A program made the position numbers and the translations under genes. From assembly GCA_026391215.1 (NCBI GenBank), contig JAPLDX010000010.1, positions 1 to 16,626 of the forward strand: 16,626 bases of DNA. The letters run 5' to 3'. This DNA comes from Bacteroidia bacterium (GTDB lineage: Bacteria; Bacteroidota; Bacteroidia; Bacteroidales; VadinHA17). Each line of letters begins with the position of its first letter. The first letter of the stretch is position 1. Below, in pieces: positions 1,601 to 14,889 of the stretch. The notes under the pieces were generated by a model. It saw only the letters and a list, made by a program, of their open reading frames with translations, ran no database searches and was not told the origin of the DNA.

Positions 1601-1990
1601 CTAGATTATTTGATCAAGGAATTGTCTAATCTTGTTAAGTACTTTTTCCGTATTTTCTAATTCCTCATTCCTGATTCTTAGTACATGAATACCTATTTCT
1701 TCCAGCTCTGAATCTCTGAACTCATCATATTCATCTGTTTTATCATGAATAGGACCATCCAGTTCTAATACAGCTTTCTTTTCAAAACAAAAGAAATCGG
1801 CAATGAAGTAATTATACCTTTTCAGATTACCCTTATAAAGGATAACATGCTGCCTTAGGAATTTGTATCCTGATAGTTTTCTTCCTCTCAGTTCGTTCCA
1901 AATTAATTTCTCAGACTCAGTCATATTGATCCTGAGTTCCCTTGCTTGTCTTTCTATCCCAGCAAAATCAAATTTTTTAATCTTAGACAT
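1601..1990 (-). CDS. DUF559 family endonuclease-domain protein (Vsr-like, PD-(D/E)xK fold)
   Basis: Motifs ARELRINMTESEKLIWNELR, YKFLRQH, FIADFFC, LELDGPIH, YDEFRD, GIHVLRIRN match the DUF559 pattern. ATG at 1990 is preferred to the GTG at 2005 used by the track because a promoter-like element ends at 2010. Confidence 0.9.
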   Translation of the reverse strand: MSKIKKFDFAGIERQARELRINMTESEKLIWNELRGRKLSGYKFLRQHVILYKGNLKRYNYFIADFFCFEKKAVLELDGPIHDKTDEYDEFRDSELEEIGIHVLRIRNEELENTEKVLNKIRQFLDQII

Positions 1991-2009
1991 ACTTATAGAA
2001 TCCACAGCC

Positions 2010-2156: not shown

Positions 2157-3911
2157 TTATCTGTTCTGAACCAGAACACCAGGCATCAGGTCGAGCTGAC
2201 GCTGAGGTATCGGGAAAGTAACATCTTCAGGACCAACAACTGCAGCTCCCTGCAGGTACATTGACCCATTTTTGCCCCATGGTGTGGTTGTTTCATAGGC
2301 AAGAACCCTGTTAAGTTCAGCTACCGTAATTCCCCACCTGTTAAGGTCGAAATACCTGTGGCCTTCCATTCCGAGTTCAAGTTTTCTTTCCATGTACAGA
2401 GCTTTGCGTGCATTAGCCTGCGTGTCAAAAGGATATCCGGATGTTGGATACTCATTAATAACGTAGTTTGCAGCATTTGTTACACCATCGGCTTCTTTAA
2501 CCCATCCTGCAGGAATGGCAGCCCTGGCACGAACAAGGTTGACATTTATACGTGCATTAGTCAGGTCGTTGGTTTCAATCTGGCATTCTGCAAGAAGCAG
2601 GAGAACATCAGCAAAGCGGATCATACGATAACCATTTGCGGTCAATCCGTTGGTCCAGTTGGTGATATCGGTAAGAACTCTTTCCTGGGATTTCTTGTAA
2701 ACCTGTTTCTTGTTTGAATATGGCCCGGCATAAGTCTGGTCACGAACCCAGTCTGAGCCCGTAACGATTCCCCAGTCAAAATAAGGGATACCTCTTCTTC
2801 CAACTGCCCAGTCAAGTCTCGGGTCCAGTTCTCCAGCATCCTCAACAAAAGGATCGGCAAAATTTAGTCCCTGGTCACTCTTCACAGGATCAAGATTATA
2901 TGTTCCGTCAAGCAGTGGTAATCCACCGACAGTTCTGAATGAATTCACGAATTCCTGAGTAGGCTGGAAGAATCCGCAGCATCCGCCCGGAGAGCCGCCG
3001 CCCTTGTAAGGGAAATTCAGGATCAGGCCGTATCCTGCGTTATATCCGCCACTACCGTCATTTACGGAATACTGAACTGTATAAACATTTTCCGATACGT
3101 TCCTGTTTTCAATCACCCATAGATCACCGTAGTTTGGATAAAGTGCAAGTTTGTCACCCACTGAGTTTGTTCCGCTGGTTTTTACCTCTTGCAGAAGTGT
3201 AAGTGCACCAGCATAGTCATGGTTCATCTGCATCATTGCTTTTGCAAGGATCACCTGGCTTACGGTTTTGTTAAATCTTCCGATCTGCTCCATGTCATTC
3301 GGCAGTTTTGTCCCTTCTGTCATATCATCGAGAATTTTCTGCCTGATATCCGCTGTATTAGCAGTGGCCTTAGCATCAGTTTTTTCATCAATATATGGCA
3401 CTTTTTCCCACATTCTCCATGCTTCAAAATGGTACCATCCGCGAAGCGCTCTTGCCTGCATGATTAAATTGTCTGCCTTGTCCTGTGTAAGTTTGCCGTC
3501 TGCGACAGCCTTGTTGGCAACAAGAATAACATTATTGCACCTGGAAACAGCCTCATAAACCTCTCTCCACTTTGTATTAAGGTAAGGATTGGTAGATGTT
3601 TCCGTAAAGCTCTGCATCGGATTGATATCCGGCTGGTCGCCGGCATCCGTCCCTTTGTTTGCTATCATTCCCCTGATATCGCCATATACCCAGTTTTCAG
3701 ATGCTGAATTCCATGAGTAGTCATTGCCAAGACCATCGAGCACAGCATAGGCTCCTATCAGCAGGCCATTGACGCCGGTTTCGGTTCCCATCACAGATGC
3801 ATCAAGAGCCCCGTTCGGAGTGATATTAAGGAAGTCTTCTTTGCATGCACCCACTATTCCAAGTACAGCAATTATTACAATCAGTAAAATATGATTCTTT
3901 TTCATATTCAT
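2157..3911 (-). CDS. susD: RagB/SusD family nutrient-uptake outer-membrane lipoprotein
   Basis: Lipobox VLGIVGAC-KEDFL; ARALRGWYHF, IRFADVLLLLAE, VNLVRARA, ERKLELGMEGHRYFDLNRWG, FPIPQRQLD; 19 nt downstream of the susC-like gene. Start may be 3905. The symbol denotes family, not orthology. Confidence 0.93.
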   Translation of the reverse strand: MNMKKNHILLIVIIAVLGIVGACKEDFLNITPNGALDASVMGTETGVNGLLIGAYAVLDGLGNDYSWNSASENWVYGDIRGMIANKGTDAGDQPDINPMQSFTETSTNPYLNTKWREVYEAVSRCNNVILVANKAVADGKLTQDKADNLIMQARALRGWYHFEAWRMWEKVPYIDEKTDAKATANTADIRQKILDDMTEGTKLPNDMEQIGRFNKTVSQVILAKAMMQMNHDYAGALTLLQEVKTSGTNSVGDKLALYPNYGDLWVIENRNVSENVYTVQYSVNDGSGGYNAGYGLILNFPYKGGGSPGGCCGFFQPTQEFVNSFRTVGGLPLLDGTYNLDPVKSDQGLNFADPFVEDAGELDPRLDWAVGRRGIPYFDWGIVTGSDWVRDQTYAGPYSNKKQVYKKSQERVLTDITNWTNGLTANGYRMIRFADVLLLLAECQIETNDLTNARINVNLVRARAAIPAGWVKEADGVTNAANYVINEYPTSGYPFDTQANARKALYMERKLELGMEGHRYFDLNRWGITVAELNRVLAYETTTPWGKNGSMYLQGAAVVGPEDVTFPIPQRQLDLMPGVLVQNR

Positions 3912-3930
3912 AGTATATTAATATTATTAG

Positions 3931-6900
3931 TTAAAGGACAAAATTAAGTCCGAAGATTACTTGCTTGACATTTGGATAGCGACCTGTGTCAGAACCGAAT
4001 GCGCGGTCGTCCCCTCCAAGTTCAGGATCCAGTCCGGAATACTTGCTGATCGTGAAGAGATTAACGGTCTGTACATAAACCCTCAGAGATTTCACATTGA
4101 TCTTATTCAACAGACTTGCCGGCAGTGTATAGCCAAGCTGCAGATTTTTCATCCTCAGGTAGGAGCCCTTCTCCATATAGTAGCTGCAAACCTGTGTGTT
4201 GGTTGAGAAGTTGGATGAGTTTGTAGCCATAGGAACATCCGTATTGGTCCTGTCAGGAGTCCAGCTATCATAAAGCAGTCTTTTACCCTTCTGCCCCTGG
4301 AATGAAGGCCAGAAATCGATCCACCACTTGTTCCAGTTGAAGATGTCATTCCCCTGTGAGCCATACATGTATGTGTTCAGGTCTAATCCCTTATAGTTAA
4401 ATGTAAGGTTAAGCCCGTAAGTGAAAGCCGGGTTGGGATCGCCTATGAATGTCCTGTCGGCAGTGGTTATTGCACCATCACCGTTAACATCCTCATACCT
4501 GAAGAATCCGGGAGCTGCACCATCTTGTGTGGGAGCTTCAGCCACTTCAGCGTCACTCTGGAATAATCCCATTACGTTGTAGCCAAAGAATGCTGACATC
4601 GGGTGTCCGACCATGTTCCTGTTGGCTTCATTAATCCTGGTAGTTCCACCTCCCTGGTCAAAGTAATTTACACCTTCAGCAATCTTTGTTATCTCATTTT
4701 TATATGTTGTCAATTCGGCATTTGCATTAAAGCCAAGATCGCCAAAGTTATCCCTGTAGCCAAGCTCAAAGTCAAAACCTGAGTTCTTCATCTCAGCAAT
4801 ATTAATATAAGGTGATGTTGCTGTTCCTGCCTGTCCGGGATTTTCGAGCTGATATAAAAGATCCTTGGTCTGTTTGAGGTACCAGTCAAGTACAAAATTA
4901 AACTTATCGTTTAGGAAAGCTCCTTCAACACCAATATCAGTTGTAACGTTGGTTTCCCATTTTGCATCAGCATTACCGACACGTGTCGGGCGGAATCCCT
5001 GTGTTGATCCTGTCATTGCTCCTGCTATGTCATAATATGATGTAGCTGCTTCACCTCCGTACAGGTTGAACTGGTTCGCGGTCGAAAGGGCCATTTGGTT
5101 ACCCATCATACCCCATGAACCTCTTATTTTCAGATCTGAAAGAAATGAGAGGCTTTCGAGGAATGGCTCGTCGCCAATACGCCATGCAGCTGAAAATGCC
5201 GGGAAAATACCATAGCGGGTATCAGGTCCGAACTTTGATGAACCATCACGGCGGACAGTGGCGCTTAACAGGTACTTGTTCCTGAAACCATAGTCAACTT
5301 TTCCAAATATGGATACCAGTGCAGTAGGTGTATAATAGCTGGAATTTGCATAGTTAACAGAGGCTCCGTTTGTCAGTGTACGATAACTGAGGTCATTTGA
5401 GAAATAGCCGCCTCTTTGTGCTGCCAGTTCACGACCCATACCGGTTTTAATTGCTTCATATCCGGCAACTGCAGTTATCTTATGATCTCCGAATACCTTA
5501 TCATAGGTAAGCTGGTTCGTCCAGATCCAGTTGGAGCCCCAGTATGCATTTTCGCCGTAGCTGGCAGTATTGGTATTTTCAGCATTTTCGTATGTAGCAA
5601 AGTTGAAGCCAACACCATATCCGGAATAGAATCCGCCTCCAAAGCTTGATCTGAAGTTCAATCCGTTAAGGATCTTTATATCAAGATACATATTACCCAG
5701 TACATTAATGCTCTGATCCCAGTTATCCTTACCTCTTGTAAGGCCTGCAAGCGTATTGGTGCTGTTCCCGAGCCTTCCGGCAATTCCGGTGCCGCCCCAG
5801 TCGCCTGCTTTCCATGTACGTGTTGCACCTACATAGTCATCACCTGTCCACACTGCAGGTATTATTGATTGTAACCTGTAACCTGATGCGTTGATTGCGC
5901 TGTTTTCGCCATCGATATTTGCACCATTGCCTCTTTGGTATGCCACCGTCAGATTCTCTCCTATCTTCACCCTGTCTTTCAGGATAGTGAATTCAGAATT
6001 GAACCGTCCTCTGGCTCTTTTAGAATAGTTATATTTTACAATTCCATCTTCATCGAGATAGCCAAAACCTGCAAAAAACTTTGCTCTGTCTGTACCACTC
6101 GAAAAGGTAAGGTCATGATTTGTCTTTATCGCATTGTCGGTTACTTCATCGTACCAGTCGGTGCTTTTTCCAGAATACCAGACCGGCATTGTGGGGCTTG
6201 CCTGGGATGAAGGCCCGTAAACCGGGTGTGTTTCAGTTATACCGTCATTGGCATAAACAAGCCATTGAAGCTGTGCATATTCTTCAGCAGTCAGGAGGTC
6301 TGGTGTAGGACCTACTCCCGGCAACTGTACACCTGTGTACATGTCATAGGTCACCTTGACACCTGAAGAACCTCTCTTGGTATTAACAACGATAACACCG
6401 TTTGATGCTCTTGATCCGTAGACCGAAGCGGCACCAGCGTCTTTCAGTACAACCATTGTTTCAACGTCGTTCGGGTTCAGGTAAGAAATATCAGTGGTAG
6501 GAACACCGTCAACGATGTAGAGCGGATCATTTTCCTCAAATGATGAGAATCCCCTGATCCGTACTTTTGCTGCCTGACCCGGTCTTCCGTCCCCGAGTAC
6601 TGTAACGCCTGATGCACGTCCCTGAAGCTGGCTCGTCAGCTGGCCTGTAGGAATAGCGGTCAGTTCAGCTGTTTCAACAACGCCTACTGAACCGGTAAGA
6701 TCCCTCTTTCTTTGTGTGGAATAACCTGTGACCACAACTTCCTGGAGGGCCAGTACATCTGAAACGAGGGTTAGATCTATTACTGCCTGTGAACCGACTG
6801 CAACTTGCTGTGTTACATAACCGATAGATGAAAACAAAAGTACTGATGTTGGACCCGGCACTTTCAAAGTGTAGACTCCGTTTACATCAGATATTGCTCC

Positions 6901-7062
6901 GATCGTAGTTCCCTGGACCGTAACGTTTACGCCCGGCAGAGGTCCATCCTCAGCAGAAACTCTCCCGGTGATGGTCCTTTCCTGGCCGTACAAAAGACCA
7001 ACAGAAAGAACCATGCTGAATACAAACAGCGCAACGCGCCGCACATTGGTAGAAATTTGCAT
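3931..7062 (-). CDS. susC: SusC/RagA family TonB-dependent transporter
   Basis: N-terminal CarboxypepD_reg-like segment (LPGVNVTVQGT), EVVVTGY, plug motifs DPLYIVDG and LKDAGAASVYGSRASNGVIVVNTKRG, barrel motifs RRDGSSKFG and KWET, C-terminal GLNFVL. ATG at 7062 is preferred to TTG at 7068. The symbol denotes family only. Confidence 0.95.
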   Translation of the reverse strand: MQISTNVRRVALFVFSMVLSVGLLYGQERTITGRVSAEDGPLPGVNVTVQGTTIGAISDVNGVYTLKVPGPTSVLLFSSIGYVTQQVAVGSQAVIDLTLVSDVLALQEVVVTGYSTQRKRDLTGSVGVVETAELTAIPTGQLTSQLQGRASGVTVLGDGRPGQAAKVRIRGFSSFEENDPLYIVDGVPTTDISYLNPNDVETMVVLKDAGAASVYGSRASNGVIVVNTKRGSSGVKVTYDMYTGVQLPGVGPTPDLLTAEEYAQLQWLVYANDGITETHPVYGPSSQASPTMPVWYSGKSTDWYDEVTDNAIKTNHDLTFSSGTDRAKFFAGFGYLDEDGIVKYNYSKRARGRFNSEFTILKDRVKIGENLTVAYQRGNGANIDGENSAINASGYRLQSIIPAVWTGDDYVGATRTWKAGDWGGTGIAGRLGNSTNTLAGLTRGKDNWDQSINVLGNMYLDIKILNGLNFRSSFGGGFYSGYGVGFNFATYENAENTNTASYGENAYWGSNWIWTNQLTYDKVFGDHKITAVAGYEAIKTGMGRELAAQRGGYFSNDLSYRTLTNGASVNYANSSYYTPTALVSIFGKVDYGFRNKYLLSATVRRDGSSKFGPDTRYGIFPAFSAAWRIGDEPFLESLSFLSDLKIRGSWGMMGNQMALSTANQFNLYGGEAATSYYDIAGAMTGSTQGFRPTRVGNADAKWETNVTTDIGVEGAFLNDKFNFVLDWYLKQTKDLLYQLENPGQAGTATSPYINIAEMKNSGFDFELGYRDNFGDLGFNANAELTTYKNEITKIAEGVNYFDQGGGTTRINEANRNMVGHPMSAFFGYNVMGLFQSDAEVAEAPTQDGAAPGFFRYEDVNGDGAITTADRTFIGDPNPAFTYGLNLTFNYKGLDLNTYMYGSQGNDIFNWNKWWIDFWPSFQGQKGKRLLYDSWTPDRTNTDVPMATNSSNFSTNTQVCSYYMEKGSYLRMKNLQLGYTLPASLLNKINVKSLRVYVQTVNLFTISKYSGLDPELGGDDRAFGSDTGRYPNVKQVIFGLNFVL

Positions 7063-7128
7063 AGTCAAATTTTTTAAGGTTAGTTAGGTTCTAATATCAA
7101 ATTTTAGCAATCTTCCGCTAAAATCTAT

Positions 7129-7161
7129 CAAAGATAAGAAAATTTAATTCTTACAAGCAAG
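7129..7161 (-). promoter_or_regulatory. Candidate sigma70 promoter of susCD
   Basis: Perfect -7 element TATCTTTG (7136-7129) with CTTG (7161-7158) 21 nt upstream; implies a 5' UTR of about 60 nt. Confidence 0.65.
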
Positions 7162-7392: not shown

Positions 7393-8070
7393 ATGAAGAT
7401 ATTGATAGTTGAAGATGAACCCAAAGTGGCTTCATTTATAAAAAAGGGACTTGAGGAAAACCATTTTGAGGCAGATACCGCTTATGACGGATTATCTGCA
7501 GAGAAGCTTGCCCGTCAATATAAATACGACCTCTATATTCTTGATCTCATAATCCCGGGCATCAGCGGTCTTGATCTTTGCAGGAAGCTTAAAGTATTGA
7601 ATCCGAATACCCCCGTACTGATGCTTACAGCACTGGGTACTACTGATGATAAGCTTGCCGGTTTCGATGCGGGTGCGGATGATTACCTTGTCAAACCTTT
7701 TGAATTCAGGGAGCTGCTTGCCAGGGTAAAAGTTCTTCTGAAGAAAATCAATCAGCCTCTTGAAACAGTTAACAGGCTTGTTGCAGGTGACCTGGAACTT
7801 GATCTTGATAAAAAAACTGCCCGGAGGGGAAGCACACTTATTGACCTGACCGCCAGGGAGTTTTCCTTGCTTGAATACTTCATGAGGAACAGCGGGCGGG
7901 TGCTTTCACGAAACGACATTGCCGAAAAAGTATGGGATGTGAATTTTGATTTCGGCACAAATATCGTTGACGTATATGTTAACTTCCTGAGAAAAAAAAT
8001 TGACAAGGGATTTGATAAGAAGCTGATACATACTAAAATTGGATTCGGATATATTTTTGGAGAATTCTAA
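7393..8070 (+). CDS. OmpR/PhoB family response regulator (CusR/CzcR/ArlR-like)
   Basis: MKILIVEDE, phospho-acceptor region ILDLIIPG, LMLTA, GADDYLVKPF, winged helix LTAREFSLL...VDVYVNFLRKK...HTKIGFGY. Start moved from 7360 to 7393, the canonical receiver N-terminus, downstream of the promoter. Confidence 0.95.
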   Translation: MKILIVEDEPKVASFIKKGLEENHFEADTAYDGLSAEKLARQYKYDLYILDLIIPGISGLDLCRKLKVLNPNTPVLMLTALGTTDDKLAGFDAGADDYLVKPFEFRELLARVKVLLKKINQPLETVNRLVAGDLELDLDKKTARRGSTLIDLTAREFSLLEYFMRNSGRVLSRNDIAEKVWDVNFDFGTNIVDVYVNFLRKKIDKGFDKKLIHTKIGFGYIFGEF

Positions 8071-8071
8071 T

Positions 8072-9442
8072 ATGCAGATAAGGACAAGATTAACGTTGCA
8101 GTTTCTCCTCCTCGGCGGGTTGATTATGATAATTGCATCTGCTGCAACTTATTATTCCTCAGCCACTTTCCGTAAAGATGACTTTTATAACCGGCTTACA
8201 AACAGGGCCTGGAGTGTCACTAAAATGTTCATTGACACCTACGATCATGATGCCGAAATGGTAAAGAGGATGGAAAGGAATAATCCCCTCAGGTTGCATA
8301 ATGAGAAGATAACAGTGCTCGATTTCCGAAATGAGATATTATACACATCGGATGTTGATGGGGAAATAGAGATCAGAAACGATGTCCTTGAACGTGTAAG
8401 ATTAAGTGAAAGAGTAAAATACAGGCAGGGAGAATATGAAGTGCTGGGAGTATTATATACGTCGGTGAATAGCAGGTTTGTTGTTATTGCCGCCGCAACC
8501 GATACAGACGGATTTTCACACCTCAATATGTTGAGGATAATAATGATTGTCGTTTCCTTTGTCAGCCTTATCTTGTTTTTTATAGCCGGGTGGTTTTATT
8601 CCGGACGTGCAATGAAACCAATATCCAATATGGTGAAAGAGGTTGATGATATTTCAATAACCAGCCTGAATCTGAGGGTTCCTGAAGGCAACGGAACAGA
8701 TGAGATCGGAAGGCTCGCGAAGACATTCAACAAGATGCTTGAACGGCTCGAAATCTCATTTTCGATGCAGAAAAACTTCATTGCTAATGCATCACATGAA
8801 TTGAGAACGCCGCTTACATCCATAAACGGCCAGCTCGAAGTTCTGATGATGAAGGACCGGTCAACTGAAGAATACAAATCCTCACTTGCTTCCGTTCTTG
8901 ATGATATAAGATCCCTTATTAACCTGTCAAACAGACTGTTGTTGATAGCACGCACCAGCGCTGAGGGTCCCGTGAATTTCAGCAATAAGATCCGCCTTGA
9001 TGAAATTCTCTGGCAGTCGCGCGATGAGATGAAAAAGTTTAATGATGATTATCGCATCAATATCTCTATGGATGAATTACTTACTGACTCTGACCAGATG
9101 ATCGTAACAGGTGATGAGTTCCTTATAAAAACAGCCGTTTCAAATATCATTGAAAATGCATGCAAGTATTCTCCTGATCATACGGTTGACATAAGGATCC
9201 AGCATCCCGGAGAATGGATTGAGGTGGTTTTCAAAGACAGTGGTATAGGCATTTCTGAGGAGGATATAGTTAAGGTGTTTGAGCCGTTTTACCGTGGCGC
9301 AAATGCTCATTCTGCTTCAGGCAGCGGCATTGGGCTCCCTCTGGTCAGCCAGATTATCAAAAATCACAATGGCGAAATAAAACTCACATCGTTTCTCGGC
9401 AAGGGGACTACTGTGACTATAAAGCTGCCTTCGGCGTCATAA
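8072..9442 (+). CDS. HAMP-containing membrane sensor histidine kinase
   Basis: Two hydrophobic helices around a periplasmic domain, HAMP EIGRLAKTFNKM, H-box ASHELRTPL, N-box NIIENACKYS, G1 DSGIGI, F-box FEPFYR, G2 GSGIGL. ATG at 8072 lies 1 nt after the regulator stop. Confidence 0.95.
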   Translation: MQIRTRLTLQFLLLGGLIMIIASAATYYSSATFRKDDFYNRLTNRAWSVTKMFIDTYDHDAEMVKRMERNNPLRLHNEKITVLDFRNEILYTSDVDGEIEIRNDVLERVRLSERVKYRQGEYEVLGVLYTSVNSRFVVIAAATDTDGFSHLNMLRIIMIVVSFVSLILFFIAGWFYSGRAMKPISNMVKEVDDISITSLNLRVPEGNGTDEIGRLAKTFNKMLERLEISFSMQKNFIANASHELRTPLTSINGQLEVLMMKDRSTEEYKSSLASVLDDIRSLINLSNRLLLIARTSAEGPVNFSNKIRLDEILWQSRDEMKKFNDDYRINISMDELLTDSDQMIVTGDEFLIKTAVSNIIENACKYSPDHTVDIRIQHPGEWIEVVFKDSGIGISEEDIVKVFEPFYRGANAHSASGSGIGLPLVSQIIKNHNGEIKLTSFLGKGTTVTIKLPSAS

Positions 9443-9455
9443 TCACCCCCGAAAA

Positions 9456-9494
9456 TTTAATCACATTTTAATCTCCTTTTAATACTTGTTTAAT
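9456..9494 (+). promoter_or_regulatory. Four TTTAAT direct repeats at 11-bp periodicity, probable OmpR-family regulator binding site
   Basis: TTTAAT starts at 9456, 9467, 9478 and 9489. One-helical-turn tandem repeats are typical of OmpR/PhoB sites. Confidence 0.75.
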
Positions 9495-9504
9495 AGCAGG
9501 AGCT

Positions 9505-9512
9505 TATACTTG
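9505..9512 (+). promoter_or_regulatory. Candidate -7 element of an activator-dependent promoter
   Basis: TATACTTG, one mismatch to TAnnTTTG, 10 nt after the last TTTAAT box; the expected -33 position is occupied by the repeats. Confidence 0.5.
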
Positions 9513-9516
9513 CACC

Positions 9517-9587
9517 GGTTAGTTTGCATAGTCAATTTTTTAATACTCAGGGAAACCTGTGAAGTTCCACAAGAGTAGGTTCCTTTT
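9517..9587 (+). ncRNA. Candidate small RNA or structured 5' leader antisense to the susC translation start
   Basis: Begins just after the -7 element; 9523-9543 is complementary to the susC mRNA start region; then a hairpin GG-A-AACCT...AGGTT-CC followed by TTTT. The ends are inferred. Confidence 0.5.
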
Positions 9588-9611
9588 GGACTCCTGGTTA
9601 AAACCTGAAAA

Positions 9612-9648
9612 AATTAAGTAAGTGATTTGAAAGAATCACTTTTTAATT
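9612..9648 (+). terminator. AT-rich hairpin, weak terminator or attenuator candidate
   Basis: AAGTGATT-TGAAAG-AATCACTT (9620-9641) followed by TTT, extendable by AATTAA/TTAATT. Confidence 0.35.
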
Positions 9649-9706
9649 AAATGGAACTGAAGATAAAAGTTAAAAACGATAATTGCGCTACACTCTAACT
9701 TTCCCC

Positions 9707-11416
9707 ATGAAAAATAGTTTATTTTCTCATTTATTGAAAGTACGTCTGGAACGGACGATACATTGCACTTATGCTGTTTACATGTCTGTCATGCTTGTTT
9801 TACTTGCCGGATGCCGGTCAGATAATAAAACAGCTGACCGGAATAAACATGGCGCCCCTCCTGCTGCCAGCAATGATTTCTTCCAGGAGATCGGATCTGA
9901 GATCGGAATAGATTTCATTCATTCCATTGGCGATAATGAGCTGACCAATATTATTGAATCAAGCGGTGGCGGTTCAGCTTTTTTCGATTATGACCAGGAC
10001 GGGTTTATGGACCTTTATATCTGCAGCGGCACCTGGATTGAAGGATTCAGCTCCGGTGAAAAACCTGAACAGCTGCCGGGAAACCATCTATATAGAAACC
10101 GTGGCGATGGTACATTTGAAGATGTTACCAGAAAAGCAGGTGTCAGCGGACCCTGGTACAGCATGGGCGTGACTGTAAGTGATTACAATAATGATGGTTA
10201 CCCTGATATATACCTGTGCAATTACGGCCCGAATGTCCTTCTTGAAAATAATGGCAACGGATCATTCACTGATGTCACGAAGAAATCAAATACGGCCGGA
10301 GGCAATGAATGCAGCATCGGAGCCGTATGGTTAGATTATGATAATGACGGACTACTCGATCTGTACGTGGGAAATTACCTGGCTTTTGACCCTGAGTACA
10401 AATATTTTTATGCCCCTGACGGTTTTCCCGGACCTATGGCTTATGACAGCCAGAAGGATGTTCTGTACCATAATAAAGGTGAAGGGGTCTTTGAAGATGT
10501 AACTGAAAGGATGGGCCTCAACGACCAGGACGGAAGGGCTATGGGTGTCGGGGCTATCGATTATGACGAAGATGGATATGTTGATATATATGTAGCAAAT
10601 GACCATACCCTGAACTACCTGTATCATAACAATGAAGGCAAAAGCTTTACTGACAGGGGTACAATGTCGGGAACAGCTTTCAGCCAGGGTGGCGAAGCAA
10701 CGGTAAGCATGTCGGTGGATTTTGCCGATTATAATAATGACAGTCTGCTCGATATGTTTGTATCCGACGACACATATTGCTCTCTTTACAGGAACGATGG
10801 CAACGGAACATATTCTGATATGTCCTATCCATCAGGACTGGCAGTGGCATGTGCCCAGTTTGTAGGATGGTCATCATCATTTATTGATTATGACAATGAC
10901 GGGGATGTTGATATTTTCAAAGCAAACGGCGCTCTGAAACATCTGTACGGACAGGAGGATCAACTGTTTGAGAATGTCGGGGGAGAAAAATTCGTGGATG
11001 TATCGCTTGAGATGGGAGAATATTTTAGTAAGGAATATGTCGGGCGCGGAGCCTGTATGGGGGACTATGACAATGACGGAGACATGGATATACTTGTTGT
11101 GAACCTTAATGATAAAACCAGGTTTTTACGCAATAATAAAGGGAACCAGAATAACTGGATATCGCTTAACCTGACAGGAACTACAAGCAATCGTGACGGA
11201 ATCGGTGCAAGGATCAAGATCAGCGCAGGCGGCAAGGAGCAGATAGCCCAGAAGAAAGGCACGACAGGTTATCTTTCACAGAATGATCCGCGGGTCCATT
11301 TCGGACTGGCTGAAAATAAAATGATTGAAAAGATTGAAATAAAATGGCCTTCAGGAAAGATACAGACACTTGAAAATGTTAAAGCCAATCAGATCCTTGA
11401 AATTAAAGAACCTTAA
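9707..11416 (+). CDS. CRTAC1-family FG-GAP beta-propeller lipoprotein with C-terminal ASPIC/UnbV domain
   Basis: Lipobox LLAGC; seven DYD/NxDG-type Ca-binding repeats (DYDQDG, DYNNDG, DYDNDG, DYDEDG, DYNNDS, DYDNDG, DYDNDG); C-terminal SNRDGIGAR...GYLSQNDPRVHFGL...IKWPSG. Start uncertain: TTG 9683, ATG 9707 or ATG 9782. Confidence 0.9.
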   Translation: MKNSLFSHLLKVRLERTIHCTYAVYMSVMLVLLAGCRSDNKTADRNKHGAPPAASNDFFQEIGSEIGIDFIHSIGDNELTNIIESSGGGSAFFDYDQDGFMDLYICSGTWIEGFSSGEKPEQLPGNHLYRNRGDGTFEDVTRKAGVSGPWYSMGVTVSDYNNDGYPDIYLCNYGPNVLLENNGNGSFTDVTKKSNTAGGNECSIGAVWLDYDNDGLLDLYVGNYLAFDPEYKYFYAPDGFPGPMAYDSQKDVLYHNKGEGVFEDVTERMGLNDQDGRAMGVGAIDYDEDGYVDIYVANDHTLNYLYHNNEGKSFTDRGTMSGTAFSQGGEATVSMSVDFADYNNDSLLDMFVSDDTYCSLYRNDGNGTYSDMSYPSGLAVACAQFVGWSSSFIDYDNDGDVDIFKANGALKHLYGQEDQLFENVGGEKFVDVSLEMGEYFSKEYVGRGACMGDYDNDGDMDILVVNLNDKTRFLRNNKGNQNNWISLNLTGTTSNRDGIGARIKISAGGKEQIAQKKGTTGYLSQNDPRVHFGLAENKMIEKIEIKWPSGKIQTLENVKANQILEIKEP

Positions 11417-11428
11417 CTACCTCGCTTG

Positions 11429-12847
11429 ATGAATTATAAAAGGATTGCCAATATACTTGCTATAAATCTTTCGTGTATATTACTATTGTCGTGTAAAGGC
11501 ACGTCACATAATAATTTGCTTATCATCACCCGGGTACCTGGGAATTTTCAGAATCAGGAGTTTATTACAGGGGAATCCTGGCGTTATGTCACTGGAGCCC
11601 AGATTGCAGTTCTTAATCCTGAAAAGTCAGGATCAATAAAGGTTCTCTCTGACAAGTTTTATTCAGCATGTTGCCCCGAGATCTCCTATGACGGTGAAAG
11701 AATTCTTTTTGCCGCTCAGCAGAAAGAAGGCGATCTCTGGCAAATATTTGAGATGGAGATTAAAAACCTTAAAACCAGTAGGCTCACATCCTTAAAGGAT
11801 AACTGTTTCGACCCGGTTTATCTTCCTTCCGGACGCGTAGCATTTACAGGATATATTGATAACGATACTGTTAAATCAGCCTATTGCCTTTTTTCATGTA
11901 AACCCGATGGCTCTGACACCAGGCAGCTTACCTTTGGTCCGTTTTCCTCATATGCCACAGCTGTTCTGAAAGATGGCCGCCTGCTGACAATAAACCGTCA
12001 GTTGCTTCCTGACAAAAGGGATCCTATGCTTATGGTTCTACGTCCTGATGGAACAAAAGCGGATATTTTCTATAAAGGTCCGGATGGAACTAAGATAATC
12101 AGTCGCGGACGGGAGACAGCAGATGGCAAAATTCTGTTTATTGAAACAGAAAACGGCAATGCTCCTGAAGGAAATCTGATCTCTGTCAGTTATAACCGCC
12201 CTCTGCATACCAGGATCAACCTTAGTTCTGAAATCGATGGCAGCTTTAATTCCGTTCTGCCTATGCAGTCAGGAAATCTGTTAGTATCCTGGCGTAAATC
12301 AGATTCGGACCATTATTCACTTTATGAATTTGATCCGGCAGAAAAAGCTCCTGGTAAAATTCTTTATGATGATCCGGAATATAATGTGCTGGATGTTATT
12401 GAAGCTGTTAAATATGAAAGACCAAAAAAGCTGCCAAGCGAGGTGGACTACCAGGTAAAAACCGGATTGCTCCTCTGCCAGGACATCAATTACATGGGAT
12501 TTCAGTCTGCCGGAAAGGACGCAGGCATAAAAACATCACGGATTGAAGTAATAGGTATTGATTCAACATATGGTGTCGTTCAGGTTGAAGGAGACGGATC
12601 GTTTTATCTTAAAGTAATTGCCGATACTCCATTTCAGATCCGGACTCTTGATGACAAGGGTAATGTTCTCAACGGACCCAGTTCATGGATATGGCTTCGC
12701 CCAAATGAAAGGCGCGGATGCGTAGGATGTCATGAGGATCCGGAAATAGTTCCTGAAAACAGAGTCTCTTTTGCCGTAAGAAAGGCACCAGTGATAATAC
12801 CAGTACATATAACTGAAGTCAGGGAAAAAATCGTGGAGCTTGAATGA
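11429..12847 (+). CDS. HzsA-related lipoprotein: TolB/PD40-like propeller plus hydrazine synthase alpha middle-domain-like region with one c-type haem motif
   Basis: Lipobox LLSC; PEISYDGERILFA, FDPVYLPSGRVAF, PDGSDTRQLTF repeats; GVVQVEGDGSFYLKVIADTPFQIRTLDDKG...SWIWLRPNERRGCVGCHE, with CxxCH at 12719-12733. Confidence 0.75.
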   Translation: MNYKRIANILAINLSCILLLSCKGTSHNNLLIITRVPGNFQNQEFITGESWRYVTGAQIAVLNPEKSGSIKVLSDKFYSACCPEISYDGERILFAAQQKEGDLWQIFEMEIKNLKTSRLTSLKDNCFDPVYLPSGRVAFTGYIDNDTVKSAYCLFSCKPDGSDTRQLTFGPFSSYATAVLKDGRLLTINRQLLPDKRDPMLMVLRPDGTKADIFYKGPDGTKIISRGRETADGKILFIETENGNAPEGNLISVSYNRPLHTRINLSSEIDGSFNSVLPMQSGNLLVSWRKSDSDHYSLYEFDPAEKAPGKILYDDPEYNVLDVIEAVKYERPKKLPSEVDYQVKTGLLLCQDINYMGFQSAGKDAGIKTSRIEVIGIDSTYGVVQVEGDGSFYLKVIADTPFQIRTLDDKGNVLNGPSSWIWLRPNERRGCVGCHEDPEIVPENRVSFAVRKAPVIIPVHITEVREKIVELE

Positions 12848-14889
12848 GTATGAATAAGATTTATAAAAAAATAAGCATAACTGCCGGAGTTATTATTATT
12901 CTGGGAGCAATCACATATCCTCCCTTCCACCGCTGGAGCAGGTCGCACGTTAATTATCTGACTGCCACGGAAGATCATCCTCTGAATTGCCTGTCGTGTC
13001 ATTTGCCTAATCAGAAAGATGGGATTATTGCGGAAATGGTGAACGCAGATTATTATTCACCTTTTAAACTGGCAATATCCGATGATGGGAAAAAGCTGTT
13101 TGCTGTTGCTGAAGAAGGCAATTCGTTACTGATCATTGATACTGAAAAAAAAAAGGTTTTGGATGAAATCCCGGTTGGTATCCGCCCTCACAGTGTAGTG
13201 ATTGATAATGACAAAAACATAGCTTATGTGACCAACCAATGGTCTGATAATGTATCGGTTATAGACCTGAACAATAATAGTGTAGAATATACACTTAAAA
13301 CAGGGAATGGCCCTGCCGGAATTGAGCTGAGCTCAGATAAGCAATTCCTGTATGTGGTGAACTCATACAGCTCCGATCTGTCAGTGTTTGACCTTGCTTC
13401 CGGAAGAGAGCAGAAAAGGCTGACAACCGGAAATAATCCCACAGGAATAACAATGTCTCCAGATAAAAGCAAGCTTTATATAACGAGCCGGCGTGCACTT
13501 ATTGCACCCTACGGAGATCCCGTAATTTGCCAGCTTTCAGTTGTTAATGACAACAACCAGAGGATCGCTGAATACAGGGATGTGGAATCAGCTTATATGA
13601 TGGAAAACATTGCCTTTACACCCGAAGGCGACCTGGCACTGATCCCGCTTATAAGACCAAAAAACCTTGTTCCTTCAATCCAGGTGGAAAGAGGTTTTAT
13701 TATGACCAACGGCATCGGAATAATAGAGCAGAAACCTGACGGAAGAATATTACAGCTGCTGCTTGATGAGCCAAATAAATATTATGCTGATCCCTTCGAC
13801 ATCGAGATAACTCCTGACGGAAAGAGGGCTTTCGTGTCACATGGGGGTGTTGATTGTATATCAGTCATTGACCTTGACTCCCTCAGGGCATTGATAGCCG
13901 TCACCTCGTCTGAAATGCTTGATCACTTTTCCAATCACCTGGGGATCAGCACCAGGTTCGTCATAAAGAGGATCCCTACAGGGGCGAATCCGAAAGGCAT
14001 GGTCCTCTCCCCTGACGGCAAGCTTCTATATGTTGCCGAGCATCTTGAAGACAGGATCGCAGTCATAAATACCGAAAGCCTTGAAACAGTAAACACAATC
14101 GACCTTGGCGGTCCGCGGCGGATAACTGTTGCACGCCACGGGCGCAGGCTGCTTAATAGTGCCGGCCATACTTTTCAGACACAATATTCATGCTTTACCT
14201 GCCATCCCGACACTCATGAAGATGGCCTGGTATATAACATGGCTTCAAAGGATATGGGGCGAAACCTGACCAACACTCAGTCACTGCGCAATATCGGCGA
14301 TACACCTCCCTATAAATGGAACGGCAAGAACCAGACTGTATACAAACAGGACGGCTTGCGCTTTTCAACGGTGCTTACAAGGACAGAAGCTTTCTCATAT
14401 AAAGAGCTTGATGCAATAACAGCATATATTATGACAGGGATTCCCAATCCGCCCAACCTTCTTCATAATCCGGCAGGAGAACTTACGCCGGCTCAGCAGC
14501 GGGGAAAGGCTATCTTTGAACGGACAGTCGATTTTAAAGGGAACGAAATACCTGAAAAGAATCGTTGTGTCACCTGCCACCCTGCTCCATATTTTACAAA
14601 CAAACAGATGTTTGATGTTGGGACACTTGCTTCATCAGATGATTCAATCCTTTTCGATACACCGCACCTTAATAATGTATTTGCTTCACCTCCATATCTT
14701 CATGACGGACGTGCTGCAACACTCGAGGAGATATGGACTCTGTATGGCAAAACAGAACAGCATGGTATTGTGAACGATCTGACCAAAATACAGCTTAATG
14801 AACTTATTGAATATCTGAAATCTTTAAGGGACCCGGCATACGAAACAAAAAGAACTGAAAAACAACTCGCATCAATGTCACATAATTAA
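12844..14889 (+). CDS. YVTN/YncE-type beta-propeller fused to a di-haem cytochrome c peroxidase/MauG-like domain, with an extra N-terminal CxxCH
   Basis: N-terminal hydrophobic anchor; CLSCH (12988-13002); propeller repeats (IPVGIRPHSV, AYVTNQWSDNVSVID, TGNGPAGI, TGANPKGM); CFTCH (14191-14205), NTQSLRNIGDTPPYKWNG, RGKAIF, CVTCH (14566-14580), DTPHLNNVFASPPYLHDG. ATGA overlap with the upstream stop. Confidence 0.85.
   Translation: MSMNKIYKKISITAGVIIILGAITYPPFHRWSRSHVNYLTATEDHPLNCLSCHLPNQKDGIIAEMVNADYYSPFKLAISDDGKKLFAVAEEGNSLLIIDTEKKKVLDEIPVGIRPHSVVIDNDKNIAYVTNQWSDNVSVIDLNNNSVEYTLKTGNGPAGIELSSDKQFLYVVNSYSSDLSVFDLASGREQKRLTTGNNPTGITMSPDKSKLYITSRRALIAPYGDPVICQLSVVNDNNQRIAEYRDVESAYMMENIAFTPEGDLALIPLIRPKNLVPSIQVERGFIMTNGIGIIEQKPDGRILQLLLDEPNKYYADPFDIEITPDGKRAFVSHGGVDCISVIDLDSLRALIAVTSSEMLDHFSNHLGISTRFVIKRIPTGANPKGMVLSPDGKLLYVAEHLEDRIAVINTESLETVNTIDLGGPRRITVARHGRRLLNSAGHTFQTQYSCFTCHPDTHEDGLVYNMASKDMGRNLTNTQSLRNIGDTPPYKWNGKNQTVYKQDGLRFSTVLTRTEAFSYKELDAITAYIMTGIPNPPNLLHNPAGELTPAQQRGKAIFERTVDFKGNEIPEKNRCVTCHPAPYFTNKQMFDVGTLASSDDSILFDTPHLNNVFASPPYLHDGRAATLEEIWTLYGKTEQHGIVNDLTKIQLNELIEYLKSLRDPAYETKRTEKQLASMSHN

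Follow-up and report, generated by a model that had tools for sequence, protein, structure and literature searches.

The window analysed here, the whole 16,626-nucleotide (nt) stretch of contig JAPLDX010000010.1 from a Bacteroidia bacterium of the VadinHA17 lineage of Bacteroidales (assembly GCA_026391215.1), carries a susC gene, a divergently transcribed two-component system and, directly behind the kinase gene of that system, a spacer from which a plus-strand RNA complementary to the susC translation start is predicted to arise. Comparison with relatives supports the view that this complementarity is under selection, since it is strand-specific and conserved, varies by lineage together with its target and, in its start-codon form, occurs only where susC is a neighbour. 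On these sequence data we favour, at a probability of about 0.6, the reading that a transcript activated by the neighbouring response regulator represses susC by pairing at its start.

The susC gene, encoding a SusC/RagA TonB-linked outer-membrane protein, occupies 3931-7062 on the minus strand as an open reading frame (ORF) of 1043 codons, its ATG being read as CAT at 7060-7062; it matches TIGR04056 with 829.9 bits (cut-off 368) and carries the Pfam domains Plug, CarbopepD_reg_2 and beta-barrel. Behind the kinase gene, on the plus strand, the letters 9523-9543 (TTTGCATAGTCAATTTTTTAA), hereafter the seed, equal 7056-7077 (TTTGCATAGTCAAATTTTTTAA) in 13 exact positions, one extra A and 8 exact positions. 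This match had been reported by an earlier, sequence-only reading of the window and was confirmed letter for letter, as was the geometry drawn from it: in silico, a plus-strand RNA forms a 21-bp duplex with one bulged A over positions -15 to +7 of the susC mRNA. The target (7056-7077, minus strand; ATG at 7062-7060) is thus the translation initiation region, and this start region is conserved across orthologues. The core of the seed is GCAUAGUC, and the predicted duplex energy is -20.6 kcal/mol for the seed by itself and -23.7 kcal/mol for the first 32 nt of the predicted RNA.

Such a match goes far beyond what chance would give. Aligned locally on the same strand to the rest of the window, the susC start region (7044-7107) reaches a best score of 37, against 23.1 +/- 2.3 in 300 dinucleotide shuffles, whose maximum was 31, so that none of the 300 reached 37. 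The 13-mer of the seed occurs twice in the 3,388,213-base draft genome, both times in this contig; at no more than two mismatches it has three matches in the window against 0.66 expected, and at least three were obtained in 6 of 200 shuffles. A genome-wide duplex scan yielded 14,027 seeded sites, and of its 40 best non-self sites the susC site alone coincides with the start of an ORF of 300 or more amino acids. The sequence-only reading had also pointed to the word CATAGT at the susD start (3909-3914); the word is there, but as a 6-mer that includes the start codon it is at chance level. The seed word recurs a third time, as the near-copy TTTGCATAGTTAA (12 of 13 letters), on the same strand at 5345-5357 inside the susC coding region, and the predicted RNA could therefore pair within the susC coding sequence too. 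On the target side, the -7 box of susC itself (TATCTTTG, 7129-7136, minus strand) is conserved at the same place in relatives as TATCTTTG or TATATTTG; its position would set the transcription start such that the susC leader is about 60 nt long and contains the target. The predicted fold of this leader is weak (-13.0 kcal/mol, z -0.47).

OmpR/PhoB-type regulators bind direct repeats about one helical turn apart, as in pho boxes and OmpR sites. The response regulator of the window (7408-8070, plus strand; frame open from 7360, homology from 7408) is of this type by its Pfam domains Response_reg and Trans_reg_C, and the sensor histidine kinase follows at 8039-9442 on the same strand (Pfam HAMP, HisKA and HATPase_c). 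The nearest NCBIfam families are of the heavy-metal kind, both under their cut-offs: the CztR/SilR/CopR subfamily for the regulator (224 bits, cut-off 279) and the CztS sensor kinase family for the kinase (198.6 bits, cut-off 292.6). Behind the kinase gene, four TTTAAT hexamers with an 11-bp period (9456-9494, plus strand) agree at 24 of 24 hexamer positions and form the putative site of this regulator. Ten bases after the last of them stands the -7 promoter box TATACTTG (9505-9512, plus strand), which departs at a single fixed position from the Bacteroidota consensus. Promoters of the primary sigma factor of Bacteroidota (sigma-ABfr) are described as having a -7 box TAnnTTTG and TTTG near -33 in the accessible part of the source (PMC7366714); in the window the -33 region is taken by the last TTTAAT box, with no TTTG at the usual distance. 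Given the -7 consensus and the helical-turn direct repeats, we read 9456-9512 as a regulator-dependent promoter whose transcription would start, judged from the position of the box, near 9517-9519, in a conserved 5' GGTTAG motif (9517-9522, plus strand).

This architecture is widespread in the genus. The kinase was sought in 201 genomes and an orthologue was present in 97; 72 loci were fetched, which with the window makes 73. An array of the form [TTTAAT-N5]x4 follows the kinase gene with at least 20 of 24 positions matching in 66 of the 73 loci, with at least 22 in 64 and perfectly in 27. A TAnnnTT[GA] box stands exactly 10 nt past the last repeat in 51 of the 66 array loci, and GTTA[GA] occurs within 14 nt past the -7 box in 32 of them. 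In the genome of the window the array is unique, being the only site that scores at least 22, with a single site at 21/24 as the next best. Of the seven loci that miss the array, L036 has just 169 bases beyond the kinase; in G084, the closest relative, whose kinase is 81% identical, a perfect array is found 935 nt further downstream, on the far side of an insertion. Orthologous kinases of Flavobacteriales metagenome-assembled genomes (Owenweeksia, Cryomorpha, Schleiferiaceae) likewise have such an array and box behind them, ahead of a short leader and a gene. The promoter-like site named in the sequence-only reading was thus strengthened, and the seed lying directly downstream of a conserved promoter with an OmpR/PhoB-style array makes the link between the predicted RNA and the two-component system plausible. 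A scan with sigma-70 and terminator consensus sequences, which is uninformative for Bacteroidota, had overlooked the promoter. In G084 (G084:C114, L140), about 900 bp of repeated palindromic units (...AATCACACTACATAATCCAGCTCTGAAGGAGCGGGATATTTATTAAGCCCCTTCAGGGCTTGA...) separate the kinase stop codon from the array.

The complementarity to susC was then followed through the relatives. For each locus the first 130 nt after the -7 box were paired with its own susC region (-45 to +18) and compared with 200 shuffles; transcript lengths below 130 nt in the fold and duplex analyses are approximate. The duplex of the window reaches -34.1 kcal/mol, compared with -11.7 kcal/mol for the opposite strand and -16.3 +/- 3.5 kcal/mol for shuffles, and the own-susC duplex energy lies at z < -2 in 29 of the 41 loci with a divergent susC. 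The sequence-only reading had named a lack of conserved complementarity in relatives as a reason to give up its proposal, and the opposite was found. Same-strand matches of the spacer to the start of the locus's own susC are long in many loci and come in three kinds. In group A (the window, L034, L043, L052, L062, L073, L084 and G084) the seed stands at the 5' end of the RNA, as GGTTAG(T)TTTGCATAGTCA... In groups B and C (for example L029, L030, L037, L039, L044, L050, L063, L068; L046, L053, L054) it takes the form ATTTGCATAGTCAG..TCGTTTTT, about 25-50 nt downstream, within a small hairpin whose stem is GAATTC-like and which precedes a T-run. In group D (for example L021, L023, L027, L048, L055, L058-L061 and L067) the start-codon part is absent, and the susC leader is matched instead, at about -20 to -35, by the modules GGTTAGTT...AACAGGTTAG. 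G/C-rich palindromes like those of G084 fill the middle part of the RNA in group-D relatives. A small minus-strand ORF at the seed (16 codons in the window, by eye) was discarded as an explanation, as its frame is lost where the seed sits elsewhere.

Within these matches, the core GCATAG, complementary to the start codon and the bases next to it, is invariant, and the adjoining bases vary by lineage in the RNA and the target together, giving the flanks CAA(A)TTTTTT, CAA(T)GGTTTTTTTAT, CATTTA..GGTTAGTTTG, CAG..TCGTTTTT and AGTTA. The RNA reads CAATTTTTTAA against the target CAAATTTTTTAA in the window, CAAGGTTTTTTTAT against CAATGGTTTTTTTAT in L062, CATTTATGAGGTTAGTTTG against CATTTAGTTAGGTTAGTTTG in L073 and CAGGATTCGTTTTT against CAGTCGTTTTT in group B, and in L024 both the RNA and the target have AGTTA for AGTCA. 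With the core excluded, the own pairs of ten hand-picked lineage representatives, two of which share a target, sum to a score of 186, against 126 +/- 15.5 when pairs are permuted, and 27 of 100,000 permutations reach 186. Of 42 loci that have a divergent susC orthologue, 20 carry the start-codon seed, and of 19 loci without one, none does (Fisher 9e-5, a count that ignores shared ancestry); moving L042, which was counted as lacking susC although its susC is present (aligned from residue 5), gives 20 of 43 and 0 of 18. The kinases of the compared species are 53-81% identical in protein, and seeds of 13-40 nt persist across this distance; blastn gave no other match for the spacer. One further observation concerns G031, a genome of another genus without a susC neighbour (loci L026, G031:C17, and L094, G031:C23), where an 11-mer is common to the RNA 5' end and the start of a susC paralogue (47% identical, on another contig). 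The 11-mer includes the start codon, which suggests, as a lead only, that the G031 RNA may have a truly unlinked susC target.

The predicted RNA of the window has an open 5' end. Its first 28 nt are unpaired in both the 83-nt and the 130-nt predicted folds, and the seed has a predicted unpaired probability of 0.78, compared with 0.46 for the whole 130-nt RNA. Concerning the 3' end, the sequence-only reading had marked a 71-nt segment, for an RNA of 70-130 nt, and pointed to a hairpin with a U-run, which corresponds to one with UUUU at about 9550-9588 (plus strand). That hairpin is weak (-5.9 kcal/mol), outside the minimum-energy fold and variable in the alignment, and it gives way to a conserved one at 9621-9644 (plus strand), where AGTGATT-TGAAAG-AATCACT followed by T5 (-5.5 kcal/mol) makes a candidate intrinsic terminator, one that the terminator consensus scan overlooked because it is AU-rich. 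The hairpin and T-run are nearly identical in L052 and L062, whose kinases are 61-67% identical, and G084 keeps the hairpin without the T-run. The predicted RNAs of L052, L062 and the window keep the 5' seed and the hairpin with T-run and vary in between, a pattern like that of a small RNA (sRNA). The transcript is likely an RNA of about 128 nt, from about 9517 to about 9645, or the leader of the downstream operon, or both. A possible second promoter box for that operon, GATAATTG, is found at 9678-9685 (plus strand); its ATAATTG is conserved between the window and G084, and TAACATTG in L052 and TATATTTACGG in many relatives stand upstream of the same FG-GAP gene.

Together these elements suggest the following mechanism. 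The regulator encoded at 7408-8070 would bind the four TTTAAT boxes at 9456-9494 and activate the promoter with the -7 box at 9505-9512, so that transcription begins near 9517-9519. The unstructured first 30 or so nt of the transcript would then base-pair with positions -15 to +7 of the susC mRNA, a target in trans because the divergent susC lies 2.46 kb away, and this pairing would occlude the start codon and repress SusC translation. As susD and later genes belong to the same operon, they would probably be repressed too. The RNA may end at the hairpin and U-run at 9621-9644, as an sRNA of about 128 nt, or may read through as the leader of the operon of FG-GAP and hydrazine-synthase-like genes; in either case a single signal would increase the plus-strand transcript while lowering the SusCD importer. 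The regulator may also act directly on the susC promoter, a possibility raised by group-D relatives (L021, L023, L048, L055, L058 and L067), in which two TTTAAT hexamers 11 bp apart stand directly before the -7 box of susC itself (...TTTTAATGTTATTTTAATTTCTCTATATTTG...); the window has only AATTAAA at that place.

Several results weigh against repression by pairing at the susC start. No significant complementarity was obtained in 12 of the 41 loci with divergent susC, and in the genome-wide scan the susC site ranks 8th of 14,027 by raw duplex energy (after two self-antisense windows). Whole-RNA duplex energies failed to separate own from non-own targets, a ranking that is undiscriminating because susC leaders are conserved, and with 42-nt seed windows the own target came first in just 7 of 19 loci. 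The choice of representatives by hand in the permutation test and the neglect of shared ancestry in the counts belong here as well. Across loci the mean unpaired probability is 0.50 for the seed against 0.43 for the rest of the RNA, and the seed is the higher in just 12 of 23. Rfam gave no match at E <= 1 in the window, and none of its families matched the ten relatives searched. A discrete sRNA is uncertain, given that its terminator is AU-rich and weak and that the U-run is missing in the closest relative. Finally, wobble-compatible transitions number 20 and incompatible ones 15 (with 68 transversions), which is no clear preference; RNA pairing is thereby not separated from the same sequence being kept for another reason, and the asymmetry test is uninformative because permissive alignments extend into unrelated flanks. 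The sequence-only reading had proposed compensatory changes in relatives as a check, and what came of it is co-variation by lineage without a clear wobble asymmetry.

One alternative takes the transcript as nothing more than the 5' leader of the FG-GAP and hydrazine-synthase-like operon, acting in cis, for example by pairing to its own start region or by attenuation at the hairpin, with the likeness to susC reflecting a leader motif common to genes of this locus. In Flavobacteriales and in some relatives within the genus the same promoter does stand directly before the downstream gene with a short leader, and the lack of a U-run behind the hairpin of G084 also speaks for this alternative. In the fold of the full 193-nt leader (z -2.41), the seed pairs with a CUAAC-containing stretch before the FG-GAP start, which also counts against action in trans and would suit a cis role. 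AACTAAC-type motifs occur before several other genes as well, 33 of 241 being followed within 50 nt by the ATG of an ORF of at least 200 amino acids. However, a shared sense motif predicts the same sequence in both leaders, whereas the plus-strand RNA contains the reverse complement of the susC leader, its start codon and its second codon. Moreover, it is with susC that the co-variation by lineage occurs, loci that lack the susC neighbour lack the seed, and a second promoter-like box stands between hairpin and gene in many relatives. On balance a purely cis-acting leader seems to us unlikely.

In a second alternative the same protein binds both copies, as a DNA operator or an RNA site, or the copy at 9523 serves as a minus-strand decoy of the susC leader. 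Sequence identity between the two places is predicted by this explanation as well as by pairing, the wobble test did not favour RNA pairing, and a single RRM_1 protein of the RbpB type is encoded in the genome, RbpB being a protein that binds such RNAs in B. thetaiotaomicron according to the accessible text of PMC11697453. A fixed protein site, however, should be conserved and should not drift jointly in its flanks by lineage, and the site changes position, from the RNA 5' end in some lineages to a hairpin loop about 45 nt further along in others. The sole conserved promoter is directed towards the plus strand, and the supposed site spans the susC start codon and first coding bases, which are constrained by coding. 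We regard a common protein site or a decoy as unlikely too. Less probable still is that insertion of the 2.5-kb two-component module left a neutral scar by duplication, or that the two copies reflect occasional gene conversion. A duplication scar was the alternative named in the sequence-only reading, and in its favour the two copies are direct repeats flanking the regulator and kinase genes. Loss of the repeat in most relatives would have spoken for it, the opposite of what is seen, and with kinases 53-81% identical neutral intergenic DNA should be unalignable, yet the seeds persist, with offsets that differ between lineages, in a position fixed relative to the promoter and not to the module boundary, with a co-variation specific to lineage, and at about 20 nt a length very short for gene conversion.

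Repression of an importer by an sRNA that pairs at the susC start has precedents, of which FopS is the nearest. As far as the accessible parts of the report describe them (PMC11697453), the FopS sRNAs of B. thetaiotaomicron are 65-70 nt long, have a single-stranded 5' seed and a terminator, are encoded in 14 copies behind plain sigma-ABfr promoters and block susC translation at the start region. The predicted RNA of the window resembles them in coming from the same order (Bacteroidales), in its predicted pairing at a susC start, and in that the genome encodes one protein of the RRM_1 class to which the FopS partner RbpB belongs; its layout may be comparable, with a 5' seed predicted to be unpaired and, behind it, a candidate terminator hairpin with a U-run that G084 lacks. 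The 5' ends of four group-D loci (L048, L027, L058 and L059) even match the complement of the published FopS northern probe at 17 of 19 positions. The window RNA, in contrast, is outside the 30 best loci in this probe alignment (lowest score among the 30, 16), and its seed has only TTAG.TT in common with the FopS 5' region. It also differs in length (about 128 nt against 65-70 nt), in copy number (one against 14 paralogues), in its promoter, a four-box direct-repeat array with a -7 box where FopS has a plain sigma-ABfr promoter, and in being encoded in the locus of its own target with a seed tailored to a single susC, start codon included. The motif GTTAG[TA]T has 229 sites in the genome, 8 of them with a -7-like box just upstream, and the full arrangement occurs at this locus only. 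A FopS covariance model is said to be deposited in Rfam (accessible text of PMC11697453), and at E <= 10 neither FopS nor GibS matched 9440-9710 or the loci of ten relatives, in a copy of Rfam in which the presence of the FopS model is unconfirmed. The comparison with Rfam and FopS that the sequence-only reading had recommended thus placed the window RNA in neither. Its best Rfam match, STnc400, was set aside: 17.9 bits against a gathering score of 80, with just the hairpin at 9620-9647 aligned.

Other known RNAs share the logic in part. In enterobacteria, the OmpR-dependent sRNA MicF represses ompF, and OmrA and OmrB, likewise OmpR-dependent, repress TonB-dependent receptors such as cirA, fecA and fepA. 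The likeness to the present case lies in an OmpR-family two-component system activating an sRNA that represses translation of an outer-membrane protein at its start region; the differences are that MicF, OmrA and OmrB are unrelated in sequence and phylum, depend on Hfq, serve global regulons and are not encoded next to the two-component genes. From these comparisons we conclude that the predicted RNA probably works like FopS and like OmpR-dependent OmrA/B or MicF, without counting it among the FopS family. DonS-type RNAs of B. fragilis and B. thetaiotaomicron are cis-antisense to susC 5' ends, as the accessible parts of two sources describe (PMC7366714, PMC13750123); they too are resident in the locus, 78-128 nt long and antisense to the 5' end of their own susC, and DonS lowers expression. 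DonS, however, overlaps susC on the opposite strand, whereas the RNA gene proposed here is 2.46 kb off, beyond the regulator and kinase genes, so that pairing is limited to about 21 nt and must be kept up by co-evolution. SrcF of Segatella copri, likened here by description only, is a Bacteroidales sRNA under two-component-type control that affects polysaccharide utilization loci; it is repressed by the hybrid two-component regulator HTCS-Inu and acts as a global regulator (accessible text of PMC13750123), in contrast to the single neighbouring target in the window. A search of the literature, with subscription-only papers outside its scope, found no sRNA of Bacteroidota that a classical two-component system controls and that acts on the susC next to it, and the table of sRNAs in a 2026 review, in its accessible part, has only RteR, DonS, GibS, BatR, MasB, FopS and SrcF.

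Beyond this single locus, we tentatively entertain, at somewhat under even odds, a broader reading. In this large uncultured Bacteroidales genus, the main direct output of a classical two-component system would be a 'private' riboregulator behind the kinase gene, with a seed that co-evolves with the start of the neighbouring SusC importer. The riboregulator may have arisen when the downstream operon's leader was recruited to a new function, and its seed would move among three layouts, namely the RNA 5' end, a hairpin loop, and modules directed against the upstream leader. Two-component system, sRNA and TonB-dependent transporter would form a toggle embedded in the locus, evolutionarily tied to the FopS seed and wired quite differently, and, with copper/silver-type families nearest to the regulator, this toggle might couple the sensing of metal or redox state to the shutting down of an outer-membrane importer.

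Control of SusC-type transporters by sRNAs has so far been shown only in a few gut Bacteroides, and little is known of the signals that switch them on. In this case the sequence by itself offers a complete circuit of sensor, regulator boxes, promoter, seed and target, which recurs in dozens of environmental Bacteroidales species, with natural compensatory variation that hints at base-pairing. If repression by pairing at the susC start is true, it would extend the FopS principle beyond the gut, would be the first case in the phylum of a classical OmpR-type system acting via a dedicated sRNA, and would show how an operon leader can turn into a trans-acting regulator.

The remaining genes of the window frame this circuit on both sides. 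Downstream of susC in the same operon lies a SusD-family lipoprotein gene (2157-3911, minus strand; Pfam SusD_RagB and SusD-like_3), and a further FG-GAP protein is encoded at 1-1329 on the minus strand. Behind the predicted RNA, the downstream operon begins with the gene of a protein with FG-GAP/VCBS repeats and an UnbV_ASPIC domain by Pfam (9707-11416, plus strand; ATG at 9707), followed by two genes for hydrazine-synthase-like beta-propeller proteins, one of them with cytochrome c / di-haem peroxidase-like domains (11426-14889, plus strand), and by two further plus-strand genes from 14901 onward. The order of susC on the minus strand and of regulator, kinase and FG-GAP gene on the plus strand is kept in relatives of the same GTDB genus. 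The sequence-only reading had proposed a switch in which the two-component system turns on a haem operon and silences the SusCD importer. The complementarity to the susC start, by comparison, and an OmpR/PhoB-style promoter array both speak for the switch, and the haem operon as such does not stand: the label is only loosely right, as the products of the operon all score under curated cut-offs, the matches to the hydrazine synthase alpha and beta/gamma subunits far under them (111 vs 800 bits and 248 vs 1250 bits).

Several minor features deserve mention. The window thus presents, at 11426-14889, hydrazine-synthase-like proteins in a Bacteroidales genome, beside FG-GAP/UnbV proteins and behind a copper-type two-component system. 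Across the genome G000 (for example on C111, C86, C119, C78 and C42), the leaders of several genes, a second susC among them, carry at 15-30 nt ahead of the start codon a motif of the AACTAACC type. In the interval that separates susD from the FG-GAP gene at 1-1329, a DUF559 ORF (1601-2005, minus strand) is flanked by two nested pairs of inverted repeats rich in GGGGG/CCCCC, one of 37 nt with 86% complementarity (1545-1581 / 2039-2075) and one of 23 nt with 87% (1517-1539 / 2082-2104); ORF and repeats together look like a small inserted element. In one further genome the kinase orthologue occurs in two tandem copies, about 3.7 kb apart on one contig (G042:C44, 133096-138131).

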